From the sequence record PZ151149.1: DNA of 64,000 nucleotides; one strand, 5' to 3'. Origin of the DNA: a phage. The notes under the pieces were generated by a model. The model was not told the DNA's origin and did no database searches. It worked only from the letters and a program-made list of their open reading frames with translations. Shown here one piece after another: positions 14,190 to 20,000 of this stretch. Made by a program: the position numbers and the translations under genes. How positions within the stretch are numbered: position 1 is the stretch's first letter; each line of letters starts with the position of its first letter.

Positions 14190-14215
14190 ATCTCCTACTT
14201 GTTGATAACTTTTTA

Positions 14216-14872
14216 TTAAATGTTCGCGAGAATCGCGCTTTCAAATTCTTCTAATGTACCATTATTTATGATAATGGTTTCACCGTCAATAGGCAAAATT
14301 CCTTTTTCGGTGGAGTGAGTCGATACAATACCGGTATCACGCTGAATATGCAACACCTTAGCACGCATAGCACGCATGAGAGCAATTTCAATAGGCTGAC
14401 GCACATCAACTACTACAAAATACCCTTCTTCACTTTTGCGCTTCATAAACTCATTCACGAAGAGATTACACCAATAAAGCGGATTAATCAAGTTAACCAT
14501 TATCTCAGTACCGAGAGTGGTTAACATAAGACGAATAGACCAGACGTTATTATGTTTTTCGCCGATCTCATTAACGACCTTGTAAATCTCAGCCAGACTA
14601 TCACAAGTAAAGGAACTACCGCCATACTTCGAATCTAGCATAAGCAGACACTGAATAAACCACTTATGCGCGGTATAGGTATCAATACCTAGATCGGCTT
14701 CTCTGTCACGCCCCAACCCGTCAAAGTCAAGATAAGTCAGACCTAAGTCTGGTTGGCATTCGCATAAGATTTCTTTGATCGGTGCTGCCAGTTGATAACT
14801 GTGTCCATCAATGATTAACGCGGCAGTGTCTTTTCCTACGCGCTTTTTACCACAAAGTGCAATCAATTTCAT
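14216..14872 (-). CDS. 1: deoxynucleoside monophosphate kinase (T4 gene 1-like)
   Basis: P-loop GKKRVGKDT and recalled similarity to T4 gp1. Confidence 0.8.
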   Translation of the reverse strand: MKLIALCGKKRVGKDTAALIIDGHSYQLAAPIKEILCECQPDLGLTYLDFDGLGRDREADLGIDTYTAHKWFIQCLLMLDSKYGGSSFTCDSLAEIYKVVNEIGEKHNNVWSIRLMLTTLGTEIMVNLINPLYWCNLFVNEFMKRKSEEGYFVVVDVRQPIEIALMRAMRAKVLHIQRDTGIVSTHSTEKGILPIDGETIIINNGTLEEFESAILANI

Positions 14873-14887
14873 AATATAAGCCTCTTG

Positions 14888-15478
14888 TTACTTTCTAAAT
14901 GCAGGGTGCATAGCTTTAATACCTTCCACTCGCTGACGATCCGCCGCCTGAATTGCTGGGCGAGGAACGATCAGTTGACCATCACGTTCAATGCTCATTG
15001 TTTTAAATGGAAGAATTGCAGTACACACCAGAGATTCATGCATGTCATCGGTGTATGTTAACTCAAGTTCCCCCAATTGTGAACACCAACAACCATAAAA
15101 GTTAAAGGTGCATACAATGTTACGGCGTTCATTGTCCAGCATGTGAACTTGAACGGCTTCCGGCATTGAATCCTTCCACGCGGTGGAGTTACCGTTATTG
15201 TAGTCTACTATAGAAAGCATCCATGTGTAAAGGTTTAGATAGCTTTCCAAATGCTCATCGACAATAAACCGGACTACCAACGGGTCAAACTCTACATGAC
15301 TGGAAGGATAATCAGCGACCGCCAAACCATATTGACCAGCAACTTGTTTAGTCGGTGGAATGGTTATAGCCGGAAGTGTAACACCTTGACAGTTTAAAGT
15401 AAAGCCTTTTGTTAGTTGACCATCTGGAATGGCAATCTGCCAGTTGCTAGGGTTAGCATAGTTAAAGAGATTGGACAT
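14888..15478 (-). CDS. structural protein at T4 gene 3 position (tail completion/sheath stabiliser-like)
   Basis: 196 aa ORF; positional inference from T4 order 1-3-2-4. Confidence 0.45.
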   Translation of the reverse strand: MSNLFNYANPSNWQIAIPDGQLTKGFTLNCQGVTLPAITIPPTKQVAGQYGLAVADYPSSHVEFDPLVVRFIVDEHLESYLNLYTWMLSIVDYNNGNSTAWKDSMPEAVQVHMLDNERRNIVCTFNFYGCWCSQLGELELTYTDDMHESLVCTAILPFKTMSIERDGQLIVPRPAIQAADRQRVEGIKAMHPAFRK

Positions 15479-15508
15479 TACGATTCCTTAAATGAAAATA
15501 TTTATCAA

Positions 15509-16042
15509 CTAAAAATTTAAACTAGCATAATCTCCAAAATGTTCCTTTGCTGCTTCGTCATAAGCCTTTGCAGCATCAACTTCGTCAAGAAAGACGCCCA
15601 AATGGACCTTTCTACGATTGATTGATATCTGAGCACACCATTTGTTATTCTGTGTTCTAATCACTCCTTTATACTTACTCTTACAACCATCAAGTTTTCC
15701 GCGATTGAATGCATTTTCCTGAGAAGTGGATTCTCTCAAGTTATCCGGTGCATTATTTTCTCGGTTTCTATCTATATGGTCGATCATTTTAACTTGCGTA
15801 CCATGTTCAAGATACCAAACAACCCTATGAACTTTAATGACCAAAGAATAGCCATCACTGCGCCAAAACTTAAAACATAGATAACCTCGACTATTTTTAT
15901 AAACTTTAACCGGGTCTCCTGCCTTATACCATCGACCATTCTTTCCACTATCTTTCAAATGGTACAATATACCATTAACGTGTTTATACTTATCTCTAAT
16001 TTCTTTTTGTGTAAAATCATCCCACATCTTAAACCCAGACAT
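15509..16042 (-). CDS. HNH homing endonuclease with C-terminal AP2 DNA-binding domain
   Basis: IDHIDRNRENNAPDNL (HNH) and YKGV...KWCAQISINRRKVHLGVF...AAKAYDEAA (AP2). Confidence 0.8.
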   Translation of the reverse strand: MSGFKMWDDFTQKEIRDKYKHVNGILYHLKDSGKNGRWYKAGDPVKVYKNSRGYLCFKFWRSDGYSLVIKVHRVVWYLEHGTQVKMIDHIDRNRENNAPDNLRESTSQENAFNRGKLDGCKSKYKGVIRTQNNKWCAQISINRRKVHLGVFLDEVDAAKAYDEAAKEHFGDYASLNF

Positions 16043-16157
16043 ACATTTTCTCCTGATAATATTATTAATAACAACATCAATCTAACATATCTAGTATATA
16101 ATGTCAATTGTCGCTTTGCGACGTGCCGTAGGCACTGACTACTTTTTAACCGAAACA

Positions 16158-16192
16158 AATTTTCTATATTCTAAAGATCTTTCTTCGTTTTG
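16158..16192. repeat. intergenic repeat element, copy A (contains palindrome AAAGATCTTT)
   Basis: 35-nt near-identical match to 53111..53145; shares CGAAACAAATTTT with 52963..52975. Confidence 0.6.
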
Positions 16193-16262
16193 GTTATGTT
16201 TTAACCAATAACTATATTTTTATACAGTAATAAATAAAACTGGTACTATACGAGGACTTCTT

Positions 16263-16517
16263 ATGACAGAAGACATTTTGTTAAAACTCTATGATCGTTT
16301 GGATAACGAATTAGCAACATTGCGGGGTGAAGTTCTCTATTTGTCTAAATGCAATACAGATCTGATTAAGCAGATTGCCGAAAGGGATGACCAAATAAAA
16401 TCCCTTTCAGGCGCATTACGTGATCGCGACAAGGCATTAGAGATTTTACAGCGTGTAACCAATAAAGAAGAGTTGAAAGACTTTCTACATGGTTATGCTC
16501 ACGCCATCGATCTATAA
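16263..16517 (+). CDS. small coiled-coil protein
   Basis: 84 aa helical ORF followed by terminator. Confidence 0.55.
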   Translation: MTEDILLKLYDRLDNELATLRGEVLYLSKCNTDLIKQIAERDDQIKSLSGALRDRDKALEILQRVTNKEELKDFLHGYAHAIDL

Positions 16518-16522
16518 TAAAA

Positions 16523-16541
16523 AGCCCGTCAATGACGGGCT
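16523..16541. terminator. bidirectional intrinsic terminator between convergent genes
   Basis: GCCCGTC-AATGA-CGGGC hairpin flanked by A-run and T-run. Confidence 0.6.
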
Positions 16542-16546
16542 TAATT

Positions 16547-17575
16547 TTAATATGTATCAGCTAATTTAATTATGTTATCAAGTTCCGTGATTGGTAAAGT
16601 TTCTGTGTATCCATCTTTCAACATGGATTTATCAACAACGCCACAATGATAAGTTCTCTTTATTTCCTTTTCAAGTTCCCACGGAATCCAGCCATCAACA
16701 CTTTGTTTGACGTAAACAAGTTTGTGAACAAACTTAGATTTCTGCATATGTTGTTTCATTCTGGTTTCCGGTAATTCATTGGTTACACCAAACTTTATAA
16801 ATTTATCATCTAACGTCTGGATATAAAAATATCCCATCTCAGATGGACGATAGCCAGAAGAACTACATTTCGGACACCCTTTAGCATTTCTGTTGAACGT
16901 ACAATATCTTACAGAAAATTCGGCGTCATGTTTTGTACATTTAAGTTTTATCCATGAATTTGCAGTACCTATCCATTCACCATCGACACCTATATATTCA
17001 TACCCTAACTTTTTACATTTATCTTCTATTCTAGATAGTGCATCTTCCACGGGAACGACATATTCCGTCTTAAATTGTTCAGCCGCACATTTCTTACAAC
17101 CACATGTACCATGATTTTTAAAATCAAAGAACTTTGTATTCTTCCAAATATGGTCATGTTTCTTGCATCTAAGAATCATCTTAGTAATTTGTGATTTCCA
17201 GCCACCAACAAATCCCAAAAATTCATAATCAAGATCTTTACATTTTTCTTCAATGAATTTGGTTGCTTCATCTTCTGTCATAACTCCCCTACATTGAGGG
17301 CAACCAACAATAACCTTTTTAGCATAGAAACTATTACTGGAAACATCATAGACAGTTCCATGCTTATTGCATTGGATAACAGATCTAGTCAATTTTCCTT
17401 TCCATTCTCCAGTAAATCCTAAGAATGTATGGTCGACAAGTTTACATCTTTCAATAACTTTATCTGCAAACTCTCTAGGAGATTTTGTTACCTTGTTTAC
17501 TCTGTATTCTATTTCTTCCGGTTGACGAAGATCATAAACGTGGGGATTTCTCCCCACGGAATTAATATTAAGCAT
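16547..17575 (-). CDS. homing-endonuclease-like protein: three tandem zinc-ribbon modules plus C-terminal T5orf172/GIY-YIG-like domain
   Basis: Three repeats FLGFxGxWKxxxT...C.KH...CxxC; C-terminal GYFYIQT...KFGVT; start at 17575 with AGGAAGG RBS. Confidence 0.6.
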   Translation of the reverse strand: MLNINSVGRNPHVYDLRQPEEIEYRVNKVTKSPREFADKVIERCKLVDHTFLGFTGEWKGKLTRSVIQCNKHGTVYDVSSNSFYAKKVIVGCPQCRGVMTEDEATKFIEEKCKDLDYEFLGFVGGWKSQITKMILRCKKHDHIWKNTKFFDFKNHGTCGCKKCAAEQFKTEYVVPVEDALSRIEDKCKKLGYEYIGVDGEWIGTANSWIKLKCTKHDAEFSVRYCTFNRNAKGCPKCSSSGYRPSEMGYFYIQTLDDKFIKFGVTNELPETRMKQHMQKSKFVHKLVYVKQSVDGWIPWELEKEIKRTYHCGVVDKSMLKDGYTETLPITELDNIIKLADTY

Positions 17576-18390
17576 CTTTCCACACCTTCCTTGCATCATA
17601 GTTTTTACCTTTAGAAACAAATTTATATGTGTTAAGGTAGATAATATTGCTCCAGTCTTTCGGGCTAATCTCAACAAGTTTTGTTTTAATGTGTCCCGGT
17701 AGATATGCTTTGATCATGTGGTCACTACCACGCATACCTTTTACATCACTCCATTTAATCTTCAAGCGTGTTTTATTGCTCAAGGTAGGAGTAGATGCAT
17801 ATTGCTTTAAAAGTGCTTCCAGAAACTGCTGACGGGCTTTAGGCGTTACATAGTGTAAGTTAAGACCCAGCATTACAGTATTACCCGCCTTTGTCTTAGA
17901 ATCACCCAGACAAATGATCAGCGGGAAAACATCCCAATATGGCAAAGTATCTTTATACTTCGCATCATACATAAAGGTATAGATTCGCCCTACTTGCGGT
18001 TTTACAATCTGGTGTCCCTTTATTCCAGCTTTTATTGTTTTAGTAAACCACTCCTGTGATTTTTCTTTAGGACGACTCTTTGATACAGCACGCATAGACG
18101 CACGAAAATCATTAATCATCATCATTGCGCGTTGCTGCTTATTGAGACCCTTTGCACCTTTCCCTTTTAGTTTTTCAACTTCTATTGCTGTTTTAATTTC
18201 GCTGGCATAACGAGACATACTTTTAGTGAAAGTCGCATAGGCTATTCCCTTAGAATCTGCAAATGCTTTAGCTGTCATTCCTTTGGCTTTTGCTTTCGCA
18301 AATTCTACACCCAATTCGACCCACTGTTTAGACTTTCGCTTTTGGGGAGACGGCTTTTCGTCTTCTGTGATTATTTCAAATACGCTCATA
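17568..18390 (-). CDS. protein at T4 gene 2 position (DNA end protector-like)
   Basis: 274 aa from internal Met MSVFEII; length and position match T4 gp2; not verified. Confidence 0.45.
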
Positions 18391-18515
18391 ATATTGTCCT
18401 CTATGTTTATGTTTGTTACACACTTGACAATCCTCTTTGCTATTGCTAAAATGCAGACGAAAATAAACAGCGATACTTGTTGATAAATATCATTATAACA
18501 CAGGAGGAACATTAG

Positions 18516-19538
18516 ATGCAAGATATTAAGAACAAAATTTTGATGCAGTTTCCGAATGCAGATATCAAGTATTTAGAAAAGTATCTAGAAATTTGTGCAA
18601 ACCCAGATAAGGATGGGGAATTAGAGAGGCATCATATTCTACCAAAATCAATTTGGAAGGAATATGAAGACCTTAAAATTCATGATTTTAATGCTGTTCA
18701 CTTGAACACCGTTCGTCATATGATGGCACACTACTATTTCAGTAAAGCAACAAATTCCATTTGGAAGTCTGTTGTTATGATGTTTAATACCAGAATTGAT
18801 ATTATGAAGGAATTGCCAGAAGATATTGTGTTGAAACTTGCTGGTATATCAGAAGAGGCAAAGCGAAAACATGTATACACGGAAGAATCTAGACTGAAAA
18901 TGTCGGAATCACAAAAACGTTTCATGGCTTCTCTTGATGAAGAAGAATTAAAACGTCGCCATAAGAAAAGAACTGATTCCGTTAAAGAACATTTTAGAAA
19001 CTTGAGCGATGAAGAACGAGAAAGAAAGTATAAAGAACGTGGCAAGAAAATATCAAAGGCGTTAAGTAATAGATCAGAGGAAAAACTTAAATTACGAAGA
19101 GAAAGGCTTCTACAAACTATAAACTCAAAGTCAGACGAAGAAAAACAAAGAATCGCCAAACTACTTTCAGATTCACAAAAACCGAAAGAAACATGGGGAA
19201 AATTTGATGAGTTATATGCATTATGGATTGATCTGAATATGCCGGGTCAATATGTATTCAAGCGCGAGGCCATTAAACGTGGATACCCAGATAGGTCATA
19301 TGATTACATCGTTAAAGAAATGAAAAATAAGTACATAAAGGAGAATGGAAACGACATAATAAAATTAAATCCCAGAAAAAATTCTGGTGTCTGGGTATAT
19401 TATGACGAAATATATAAGCTGTGGAAAGAAAATGGTATGCCTAGCGATAGAAAAACAAGAAAAATAGCGGTCGAGAATGGTTATCCCGACCAATGCTATC
19501 AAACTATAGTAAAAGACTTTAAGAACTCACTTATTTAA
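18516..19538 (+). CDS. HNH homing endonuclease with two C-terminal ~45-aa tandem repeats
   Basis: ELERHHILPKS...NAVHLNTVRHMMAH (HNH); repeats WGKFDELYALW...GYPDRSYDYIVKEM and WVYYDEIYKLW...GYPDQCYQTIVKDF. Confidence 0.8.
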   Translation: MQDIKNKILMQFPNADIKYLEKYLEICANPDKDGELERHHILPKSIWKEYEDLKIHDFNAVHLNTVRHMMAHYYFSKATNSIWKSVVMMFNTRIDIMKELPEDIVLKLAGISEEAKRKHVYTEESRLKMSESQKRFMASLDEEELKRRHKKRTDSVKEHFRNLSDEERERKYKERGKKISKALSNRSEEKLKLRRERLLQTINSKSDEEKQRIAKLLSDSQKPKETWGKFDELYALWIDLNMPGQYVFKREAIKRGYPDRSYDYIVKEMKNKYIKENGNDIIKLNPRKNSGVWVYYDEIYKLWKENGMPSDRKTRKIAVENGYPDQCYQTIVKDFKNSLI

Positions 19539-20000
19539 ACCTTTAAAACCGAACACCTTTTTTAATGTGTGTTCGGTTATGATTTTAAATTCCATATTAT
19601 GTTTTTTACACAATGCTACTGCCGCTGCCCACTTTTCGGTATTTTTCGTCCACGTCCAAGCCTCCATCATATAACGCTGCTTTGTTTTAGTCGTTAATCG
19701 CTTTGGCTTTTCTGGTGGTCTAGTCTCTTTGGCTGGCTTAATTTCCCATAAATGCTCTTTTCCATCATCAAACTTAACATAAACATCAACAAAATATCTG
19801 TGACGCTTACCGTCTGTTGATGAATTGTAAGGAATTACAACGGTCTCAGATCCCCATTTAACCACATGAGGATTACGGTCACACCATTTAAAAACATGCA
19901 ATTCCCAGCTTGAACGGTATGTGATTTTCCGTATATCCCCTTTATACTTTTCCTTATTCTCAGGAACATACTTGCCCTTATAAGTGTTAGATCCTCCCAT
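19527..20000 (-). CDS. 4: head completion protein (T4 gene 4-like)
   Basis: 157 aa; recalled similarity (ITYRSSWE...FKWCD...KWxSE) and position before 53-5. Confidence 0.55.
   Translation of the reverse strand: MGGSNTYKGKYVPENKEKYKGDIRKITYRSSWELHVFKWCDRNPHVVKWGSETVVIPYNSSTDGKRHRYFVDVYVKFDDGKEHLWEIKPAKETRPPEKPKRLTTKTKQRYMMEAWTWTKNTEKWAAAVALCKKHNMEFKIITEHTLKKVFGFKGLNK

Follow-up and report, generated by a model that had tools for sequence, protein, structure and literature searches.

An intact minus-strand gene (16547..17575; 342 aa plus stop) in the 64,000-nucleotide stretch of DNA analysed here (the window) is probably a free-standing T5orf172-family homing endonuclease gene (HEG). The carrier phage is an RB49-like (Krischvirus) coliphage, and the gene lies between the homologues of genes 3 and 2, as the preliminary description had placed it. 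As a selfish phage nuclease gene that combines zinc-finger repeats with a T5orf172 domain, it is an ordinary representative of a known family. The family was described in 2021-2023 and the gene already bears the name 'endonuclease' in RefSeq krischvirus genomes.

A zinc-finger and T5orf172 domain protein

The open reading frame (ORF), as given in the ORF list, runs from an ATG at 17575 to a stop at 16547-16549 and its product matches PHROG 681 ('endonuclease') with E=1.6e-79. Same-site genes that are 97-98.5% identical over their full length are found in FL37, FL38, ELT3, pEJ01, Cognac, ECD7, Skers and G2248. In none of the nine carriers is the ORF disrupted. A tblastn search with the 342-aa protein returned relatives in 446 phage records, including T5.141 of phage T5, a direct sequence homologue at ~30% identity. 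No paralogue of the HEG was found elsewhere in the 64-kb window, an NCBIfam search gave no family for this or either of the two other HEG-like proteins of the region, and PDB sequences, searched with a profile of the family alignment, gave chance matches only (E of at least 0.4).

Residues 1-31 (17483..17575, minus strand) form an N-terminal leader whose ATG and first codons lie within the gp2 stop region and the putative target-site sequence. The start codon overlaps the gp2 stop (ATGCTTAA), and empty sites already contain this ATG as part of gp2 codons. The first eight residues have a pLDDT below 50 in the structure model, most homologues begin at about residue 14 of the 342-aa protein, and the sole other in-frame start is a GTG at codon 7, inside a hairpin described below.

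The leader is followed by three tandem repeats, all encoded on the minus strand: residues 32-98 (17282..17482), delimited by Pfam CapR and DUF723 matches and repeat alignment, residues 99-173 (17057..17281), which hold the best Pfam CapR stretch (residues 108-161), and residues 174-240 (16856..17056), delimited by repeat alignment. Compared pairwise by BLASTP, the repeats match one another with E=7e-15, 4e-10 and 5e-13. The Pfam CapR homology domain (PF21817) matches three stretches of the protein at 54.6 bits, well above its gathering cut-off of 24.2 (E=1.2e-14), and is also matched in 27 of 27 aligned homologues. Every repeat contains the core (F/Y)(L/I)G(F/V)xGxW, then a C-x2-H pair (C69/H72, C137/H140 and C213/H216 in repeats 1, 2 and 3) and, 19 residues on, a C-x2-C pair (C92/C95, C160/C163 and C234/C237). 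These pairs supply the candidate zinc ligands of each repeat and give it the two predicted metal-binding knuckles, ~20-26 residues apart, expected of a CapR module (CxxC...CxC in CapR itself). Among 34 homologues C137, C160, C163 and C213 are invariant, and conservation is at least 90% for C69, C92, C95 and C237. The preliminary description was right about the three repeats and their motif pattern, but its length of ~45 aa covers only the core from FLGF to CxxC; the whole unit, leading helix included, is 67-75 aa.

PF21817 is named after CapR, the capsid-operon repressor of PLE, whose zinc-finger DNA-binding domain is homologous to these repeats (PMC8096241). CapR binds DNA sequence-specifically and in a cysteine-dependent manner, as seen by EMSA with Cys-to-Ser mutants (PMC8096241). 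It differs from the window protein in being a single-domain, satellite-borne repressor of 15.5 kDa that lacks a nuclease domain, and in having CxxC rather than C-x2-H as its first knuckle. The three N-terminal fingers, arranged as beads on a string, would be the sequence-specific DNA-binding part of the protein.

Residues 241-342 (16550..16855, minus strand) make up the C-terminal domain. The motifs GYFYIQT...KFGVT, which had suggested a T5orf172 or GIY-YIG-like domain at the outset, are found at residues 248-265. The protein itself reaches the threshold of none of the corresponding Pfam models, and in this it differs from published T5orf172 HEGs: the 342-aa sequence has no match to T5orf172 (PF10544) or MUG113 (PF13455) at E<=1, and its C-terminal 107 aa alone match GIY-YIG (PF01541) with E=0.049 and 14.4 bits, below the cut-off of 22.6. 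The link is made through full-length homologues (E=1e-36 to 1e-13), named 'GIY-YIG nuclease family protein' at NCBI, which carry PF13455 or PF10544. When members were scanned one by one, MUG113 was matched in 14 of 27 (best 4.8e-7) and T5orf172 in 9 of 27 (best 7.7e-7), and the same-site allele of AV108 gave a T5orf172 match with E=0.0075. Weak PADLOC matches of the domain to ThsB1 (E=7e-4) and 'HEase' (E=9e-3), the only ones obtained, were taken as noise.

Across 34 sequences GYFYIQT (Y251), KFG (K261, G263), ETR (R272), E302 and DGYTE (E325) are invariant. The GIY-YIG motif residues are thus in place, with a Tyr in strand 1, (Y/K)-x-G in strand 2, an Arg in helix 1 and a putative catalytic Glu, and structure models give a confident GIY-YIG-like alpha/beta fold in which E302 sits in the helix after strand 3; all these placements on strands and helices are model-based. 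Y251, R272 and E302 are the probable catalytic residues, and K261 and E325 are family-specific invariants. The Glu taken as the equivalent of I-TevI E75 or Odn E180 is a putative assignment. Homologues, invariant residues and fold model together bear out the T5orf172/GIY-YIG likeness of the domain, which would act as a GIY-YIG-superfamily nuclease.

The architecture is not the unusual one that it had been taken for. In its standard published form the family has tandem zinc fingers of CapR, DUF723 or DUF4379 type that precede a T5orf172 domain (PMC10448857, PMC8096241), and zinc-finger domains, often repeated, occur in 200 of 229 (87%) T5orf172 HEGs (Barth, Dunham & Seed 2023, PMC10448857). ICP1 gp53, gp121, gp130, gp165 and gp174 and T5.141 have the same domain order (PMC10448857; Netter et al. 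2021, PMC8096241), and such genes share with the window gene an essential-gene neighbour, presence/absence polymorphism and domain shuffling between alleles. One difference is the host, a T4-type Krischvirus, a group not mentioned in the main text of PMC10448857; T4 itself is without T5orf172 genes (PMC10448857). The protein does not have the N-terminal GIY-YIG domain and C-terminal DNA-binding region of the T4 Seg type. In the Seg proteins and I-TevI the nuclease is N-terminal and DNA is bound by NUMOD/HTH elements plus a single zinc finger, whereas here the order is reversed (fingers 32-240, nuclease 241-342), the fingers are three and of CapR type, and the second motif reads KFG in place of the canonical YIG.

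The insertion site and its occupancy

Comparison with the empty RB49-type site, by blastn breakpoints and junction sequences, defines a cassette of 1021 bp (16541..17561) that extends from the gp2 stop codon to a terminator. Its GC content is 0.343, as against 0.39-0.435 in gp1, gp2 and gp3, and copies of a 5-bp direct repeat, ATTAA, delimit it at 17562-17566 on the host side and 16541-16545 at the cassette end. The gene for gp2, the DNA end protector (17568..18389, minus strand; PHROG 429, E=2.7e-71; annotated in RB49 and Phi1), abuts the cassette with its 3' end. The right-hand boundary of the site is a native bidirectional terminator hairpin (16522..16542), terminator-like on both strands, which is common to ORF130 and gp2 (or the HEG) and is present in all empty and filled sites.

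A second hairpin marks the 5' end of the cassette (17539..17558, minus strand). It was found as a terminator-like match and by RNA folding, and comprises an 8-bp stem with a GNRA tetraloop followed by TTTATGATCT. It lies within ORF codons 6-13, where it occupies the place that the native terminator has in empty sites. The stem is conserved. As its loop the window has GAAA, and Cognac, ECD7 and Phi1 have GCAA; the local RNA fold has a z-score of only -1.7. Coming right after the HEG start, this hairpin and its T-rich tail may terminate or occlude most gp2 read-through. No T4-type late promoter (TATAAATA) was found on the minus strand near the gene, that is, between 11623 and 27535, and sigma-70-like matches in 15400-19700 are no commoner than in shuffled sequence, so that no dedicated promoter can be assigned. 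With no promoter found and an ATG that overlaps the gp2 stop, expression of the HEG is probably kept low.

The cassette occupies an identical junction in 9 of 58 krischvirus records and most of the others, RB49 included, have the empty site. This presence/absence polymorphism at one defined site, in genomes that are otherwise collinear, is that of a homing gene, and it agrees with the earlier proposal of a variable insertion. Neither of the two outcomes that the preliminary description had named as counting against it, a C-terminal domain without GIY-YIG likeness or conservation at the locus in all relatives, was obtained.

Its proposal of a three-gene insertion that also comprised the adjacent HNH-AP2 gene and a small coiled-coil gene does not hold, since RB49 carries the coiled-coil gene without either HEG. 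That gene (16263..16517, plus strand; 84 aa; PHROG 17832, E=4.7e-57), the homologue of RB49 ORF130, is present in every krischvirus locus fetched (RB49, Phi1, Cognac, PHB13, Makalu_002, ECD7, AV108, MIZ4, kvi and JSE) and is no part of the insertion. The HNH-AP2 gene is a separate insert (15510-16104) with its own distribution, and a third HEG-like gene lies at 18516-19538. These two and the T5orf172 gene assort independently, occurring in different combinations across RB49, Phi1, ECD7, PHB13, Makalu_002, Cognac and AV108. They are three independent cassettes, and the T5orf172 gene was inserted alone, just after gene 2.

The cassette is linked to a divergent block at the 3' end of gp2 (17571..17637, minus strand), which departs from the RB49-type allele at 20 of its 67 nt. 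No difference from RB49 is seen in the 113 nt just upstream (17638-17750), and over the first 600 nt of gp2 every pair shows 98-99% identity, save those with AV108 (~84%). All nine HEG-bearing records have the block, and so do only three of the HEG-less records among the 58 (MIZ4, MIZ5 and kvi), a linkage with a Fisher p of 2e-8, although the records are phylogenetically related and their independence is thereby overstated. On the ORF130 side no HEG-linked divergence was seen. Linked flank divergence of this kind, present in nine of nine carriers, is the co-conversion signature of a homing gene.

In MIZ4/MIZ5 and kvi, crossovers lie ~10 and 20 nt from the gp2 stop, which fits what partial conversion tracts would produce; MIZ4 and kvi could alternatively be ancestral empty alleles. 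Simple deletion of the HEG by way of the ATTAA repeats was rejected as their origin, as the junction reads GCATAAGATTAA and not GCTTAATATTAA. We propose that the block contains or adjoins the putative recognition or cleavage site in HEG-less alleles. Alternatively, it could have no role in immunity and simply have hitch-hiked from the original donor.

Allelic genes at the ORF130-gp2 site

Two further alleles of the same family occupy the ORF130-gp2 interval, a Phi1-type allele (80% aa identity) and a JSE/AV108-type allele (27%, with four CapR repeats), and ECD7 gp128 and the Skers 'putative GIY-YIG nuclease family protein' are the same allele as that of the window (~98%). Phi1 ORF130.1 is a mosaic relative to the window gene. 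Its nuclease domain is 100% identical at the amino acid level (dS 0.035) and repeat 1 is 91% identical, in contrast to repeat 2 (60%, dS ~2.0) and repeat 3 (55%, dS ~1.5), and it is linked to a different gp2 3' haplotype. In JSE ORF134 and the 380-aa gene of AV108, a separate terminator precedes a ribosome-binding site of the gene's own, and the divergent tract in gp2 is larger.

As judged from their dS of 1.5-2.0, repeats 2-3 of Phi1 are anciently diverged modules. Rapid positive selection was rejected as the source of their divergence, dS being saturated and dN/dS only ~0.14-0.25 in the swapped repeats. On the strength of this dN/dS, and of an ORF that is intact in all carriers, both the window-type and the Phi1-type allele look functional. 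No sampled donor of the Phi1 repeat 2-3 segment was found, the closest sequence being the window-type allele at 58%. It is possible, though we hold it somewhat doubtful, that the site harbours a natural series of alleles, with a T5orf172 HEG retargeted by swaps of zinc-finger modules.

Homing and its alternatives

The cleavage, target, homing and hairpin role that we infer would combine as follows. In a mixed infection with a cassette-less krischvirus, the protein would bind the RB49-type gp2 3' end or the gp2/terminator junction and cut there, and recombinational repair from the HEG-bearing genome would copy in the 1021-bp cassette together with the adjacent ~67 nt of gp2. The carrier's own allele would be protected, as proposed, because its block differs at 30% of positions. 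Homing has not been experimentally shown for any T5orf172 HEG, as stated in PMC10448857.

An unlikely alternative is that the gene is a domesticated nuclease, kept by selection on the phage, that cuts foreign DNA recognised by its fingers and so excludes competing krischviruses or attacks a satellite or host element. Its precedent is ICP1 Odn (Gp88), an origin-directed nuclease that likewise has a T5orf172 domain with conserved Arg and Glu, cleaves DNA in vitro and loses this activity in the E180A mutant (PMC8263062); in the cited literature it is the only member of the T5orf172 branch with demonstrated in vitro cleavage. Odn differs in that its DNA-binding domain is of RepA_N type and came from a satellite, and in serving anti-satellite defence rather than being a homing element. 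That nucleases derived from T5orf172 HEGs have been co-opted elsewhere (Odn, PMC8263062), and the CapR DNA-binding domain as a repressor (PMC8096241), speaks for domestication, as do purifying selection in the repeats of both alleles and an ORF preserved in every carrier. Against it stand the gene's presence in only 9 of 58 records, the lack of a significant match to defence-system models, and the allelic HEGs at the site with their tightly linked flank block, the classical signature of a HEG. The two readings do overlap, marker exclusion being a side effect of homing.

We consider it distinctly improbable that the cassette arrived and spreads through recombination, ordinary or illegitimate, at terminator hairpins or short repeats, with no part played by the protein, which might then be an inactive relic or a mere DNA-binding protein. 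The ATTAA repeat and a hairpin at each boundary would suit such a route, stem-loop cassettes have been proposed as mediators of shuffling in RB49 and Phi1 (PMC2839356), and the protein falls below threshold on Pfam nuclease models. The two boundary hairpins, however, share no common sequence, three different alleles of one nuclease family sit at the same site, the putative catalytic residues do not vary among 34 homologues and the mosaic alleles agree at 100% in the nuclease domain. Moreover, divergence in the flank is confined to one side and ends sharply, as break-initiated repair predicts. Very improbable is a PLE CapR-like transcriptional regulator that binds the gp2/ORF130 terminator-promoter region to tune late genes, its C-terminal domain being degenerate: CapR is a demonstrated DNA-binding repressor module (PMC8096241) and a bidirectional terminator adjoins the gene, but CapR has no nuclease domain while the one here is intact, its Y/K-G/R/E residues being invariant and its fold modelled with confidence as GIY-YIG-like, and the gene is dispensable in most krischviruses.

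The architecture, being the textbook form of the family, is of little import in itself. The gene is of modest value as a model system, in that carriers and non-carriers alike infect E. coli and are easy to grow, the junctions have been resolved to the nucleotide, and a block of 67 nt stands as candidate target or immunity determinant. The natural HEG-less recombinants MIZ4 and kvi narrow the location of the candidate site, and the two further alleles provide a ready-made test of how specific the zinc-finger modules are. The gene also illustrates, as does the linked gp4 allele of the HEG next to it, how the limits of allele exchange in essential phage genes are marked by nuclease genes. If retargeting by module swaps is true, and repeats 2-3 read the ~67-nt gp2 block, these phages would provide a tractable E. 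coli system for the first proof of homing by a T5orf172 HEG, and a modular recognition code of CapR-type fingers could be derived.

Insertions in the gp3-gp4 interval

The window derives from a T4-type coliphage of the genus Krischvirus (RB49-like); all 59 records matching 14200-20000 by megablast are krischviruses, with Cognac the top match (97.9% identity, 90% of the query). Using Pfam and PHROG searches and the RB49 and Phi1 annotations, we assigned the gene order as gp1 (14216-14872, -), gp3 (14888-15478, -), an HNH-AP2 gene (15509-16042, -; an HNH_3 plus AP2 homing endonuclease gene, or HEG, adjoining gp3 upstream), an 84-aa coiled-coil gene (16263-16517, +), the T5orf172-family gene studied here (the target ORF; 16547-17575, -; 342 aa), gp2 (17568-18389, -), a 340-aa HEG-like gene (18516-19538, +) and the head completion gene gp4 (19527-20000, -), followed by gp53 and gp5. 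This order bears out the position between gene 3 and gene 2 homologues given in the preliminary description. The match of gp4 to the Pfam Tn7 TnsA-like endonuclease N-terminal domain (E=5e-21) appears to be a trait of the gp4 family, not of this locus.

The target ORF, the HNH-AP2 gene and the coiled-coil gene had also been read as one three-gene insertion, a reading that fails because RB49 lacks all three HEG-like genes, yet between its genes 3 and 2 lies the coiled-coil gene (RB49p130). Against the RB49 sequence, the window carries three distinct inserts, at 15510-16104, ~16550-17555 and 18405-19539, each with a GC content (0.34-0.36) below that of the core genes (0.38-0.435), and the three HEG-like genes assort independently. 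The window has all three; at the site between the coiled-coil gene (ORF130) and gp2, Phi1 and ECD7 have only a T5orf172 gene (Phi1-type and window-type, respectively), Cognac has the window-type gene plus the 340-aa gene, PHB13 and Makalu_002 have the 340-aa gene alone, and AV108 has the HNH-AP2 gene with a distant T5orf172 allele.

The HNH-AP2 gene (Pfam HNH_3, E=6.8e-14; PHROG 99, E=1e-46; GC 0.361) lies in an insert independent of the T5orf172 cassette. The 340-aa gene (PHROG 655, 'homing endonuclease') encodes a protein with the HNH-like motif HH...N...H and, at its C-terminus, two ~45-aa repeats, each ending GYPD(R/Q)xY. Its insert sits between gp2 and gp4, the 3' end of the gene overlaps that of gp4 by 12 nt, and its linkage to a divergent gp4 allele is perfect: carriers of the gene (window, Cognac, PHB13, Makalu_002) share 99.2-99.8% identity in gp4 and non-carriers (RB49, Phi1, ECD7, AV108, JSE) 99-99.8%, against only ~80% (87% amino-acid) between the two groups. 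At the 3' end of the coiled-coil gene (16418-16517), 8 of 100 nt set the window apart from all the other krischvirus loci fetched, which are 98-100% identical to one another; this divergence shows no linkage to any HEG.

Domain architecture and family of the target ORF

The target ORF is uninterrupted and its product carries three tandem repeats (residues 32-98, 99-173 and 174-240) that match one another in pairwise BLASTP (E=7e-15, 4e-10 and 5e-13). Each opens with a helix, after which come a (F/Y)(L/I)G(F/V)xGxW hairpin and two knuckles, C-x2-H and then C-x2-C; the three repeats first described are real, but the ~45 aa ascribed to them is the core of a unit of 67-75 aa. The Pfam CapR homology domain (PF21817) is found three times (54.6 bits; cut-off 24.2), and DUF723 and zinc-ribbon models match the region more weakly.

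The protein itself reaches no Pfam nuclease model, and its C-terminal 107 aa alone (residues 236-342) match GIY-YIG PF01541 under threshold (E=0.049). Full-length homologues from a search of 5.8 billion proteins, named 'GIY-YIG nuclease family protein' by NCBI, bear PF13455 (MUG113) or PF10544 (T5orf172); scanned individually, 14 of 27 alignment members match MUG113 and nine T5orf172 (best E ~5e-7). Cysteines aside, the residues invariant throughout the alignment of 34 sequences are Y251 (GYFYIQT), K261 and G263 (KFG), R272, E302, and D321, G322 and E325 (DGYTE), a set that evidently corresponds to the GIY-YIG enzyme pattern Tyr / x-G / Arg / Glu, with a Lys, as is typical of T5orf172, replacing the second Tyr. 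On the independent evidence of the homologues' domains and the conserved residues, the proposed GIY-YIG-like C-terminal domain is supported as a member of the T5orf172 branch of that superfamily, despite the sub-threshold Pfam score, and nuclease activity is predicted.

Contrary to the earlier suggestion, the architecture is not unusual. PHROG 681 ('endonuclease') matches the protein at E=1.6e-79, and relatives turn up by tblastn in 446 phage records, with a coverage of 80% or more of the protein in 153; they include T5.141, RB49 ORF238c-like paralogues and phages of Aeromonas, Vibrio, Klebsiella and Salmonella. The layout is exactly that published for T5orf172 HEGs: the Cys-dependent DNA-binding domain of CapR is homologous to domains at the N-terminus of putative T5orf172 HEGs of ICP1 and of T5 Orf141 (Netter et al. 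2021, PMC8096241, where CapR was defined), and in 200 of 229 T5orf172 HEGs there are zinc-finger domains of the CapR, DUF723 or DUF4397 type (the last so spelled there; cf. Pfam DUF4379), often repeated as 'beads on a string' (Barth, Dunham & Seed 2023, PMC10448857). The T5orf172 domain of ICP1 Odn cleaves DNA in vitro, and E180A abolishes cleavage (Barth et al. 2021, PMC8263062).

Insertion site and linked gp2 polymorphism

Empty sites read GATGCATAA(C/G)ATTAA followed by GCCCGTCAxTGACGGGC, comprising the gp2 stop, six bases and a bidirectional terminator, and filled sites read GATGCTTAATATTAA joined to TTCCGTGGGGAGAAATCCCCACG on the left and ACATATTAAAATTAA joined to GCCCGTC on the right; from these junctions the cassette measures 1021 bp (16541-17561), with a direct repeat of ATTAA marking its bounds. 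Host sequence supplies the first five codons of the target ORF, whose ATG overlaps the gp2 stop codon (ATGCTTAA). Within codons 6-13, a hairpin whose 8-bp stem carries a GNRA tetraloop (GAAA in the window, as against GCAA in Cognac, ECD7 and Phi1), with TTTATGATCT after it, occupies the exact position of the native terminator in empty sites. In ECD7, a TATTAA tandem duplication at the gp2-stop/cassette boundary of the left junction gives two extra codons in the annotated ORF (MLNININS...). A search for a gene-specific promoter for the target ORF found none; expression is presumably low, through gp2 read-through and translational coupling. This agrees with the tightly limited expression of HEGs in T4-type phages.

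Among 58 records containing the gp2 3' end, nine have the window-type allele (G2248, Skers, Cognac, pEJ01, FL37, FL38, ELT3 and ECD7 twice), two the Phi1 allele and five the JSE/AV108-type gp2 3' haplotype (JSE twice, G37-3, PTE-Eco09, AV108); in the remainder the site is empty. In JSE (L011 793-1935) and AV108 (L008 2547-3689) we confirmed a 380-aa relative between ORF130 and gp2, with four CapR repeats and T5orf172 (27% identity). A separate terminator hairpin and ribosome-binding site for that gene follow gp2, and its linked divergent gp2 tract is much longer, identity dropping to 62-84% from ~nt 300 on.

The last 67 nt of gp2 (17571-17637) show 20 differences from the RB49-type allele, with five amino-acid changes, and the 113 nt directly upstream (17638-17750) are the same as in RB49; over its first 600 nt, gp2 is 98-99% identical in every pairing without AV108 and ~84% identical in those with it. 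All nine carriers of the window-type HEG have this 3' block, and the only non-carriers with it are MIZ4, MIZ5 and kvi (Fisher p=2e-8, or 3e-7 without duplicate records, the records being related and independence thus overstated). No HEG-linked divergence was found on the ORF130 side. Because the divergent tract is one-sided and sharply bounded, it suggests a break or recognition site in the gp2 3' block, ~20-70 nt from the stop. In MIZ4 and kvi the sequence is RB49-type again from ~10 and ~20 nt ahead of the gp2 stop, as would be expected of conversion tracts that span a break site and end short of the HEG; an ATTAA-mediated deletion would not leave this pattern. Both may be empty alleles resistant to cleavage, or the outcome of partial co-conversion.

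Mosaic alleles

Amino-acid identity between the window-type and Phi1 alleles is 100% in the T5orf172 domain (dS 0.035), 91-94% in the leader and repeat 1 (dS 0.27), 60% in repeat 2 (dS ~2.0) and 55% in repeat 3 (dS ~1.5), with dN/dS of 0.14-0.25 in the last two. Fast evolution of repeats 2 and 3 was rejected given these dS and dN/dS values. Both repeats must instead have been swapped through recombination with an unsampled relative, and purifying selection acts on both versions. The gp2 3' end of Phi1 is a separate haplotype of its own. The same module shuffling has been reported for Vibrio-phage HEGs (PMC10448857), and in the krischviruses it is coupled to a polymorphism on the putative target side.

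The target ORF is an ordinary, already catalogued, free-standing HEG of the T5orf172 family, with nuclease activity and homing predicted, and is one of three independent HEGs that crowd the gp3-gp4 interval of the window. Its remaining interest is as an E. coli model suited to testing nuclease activity, target site and homing.
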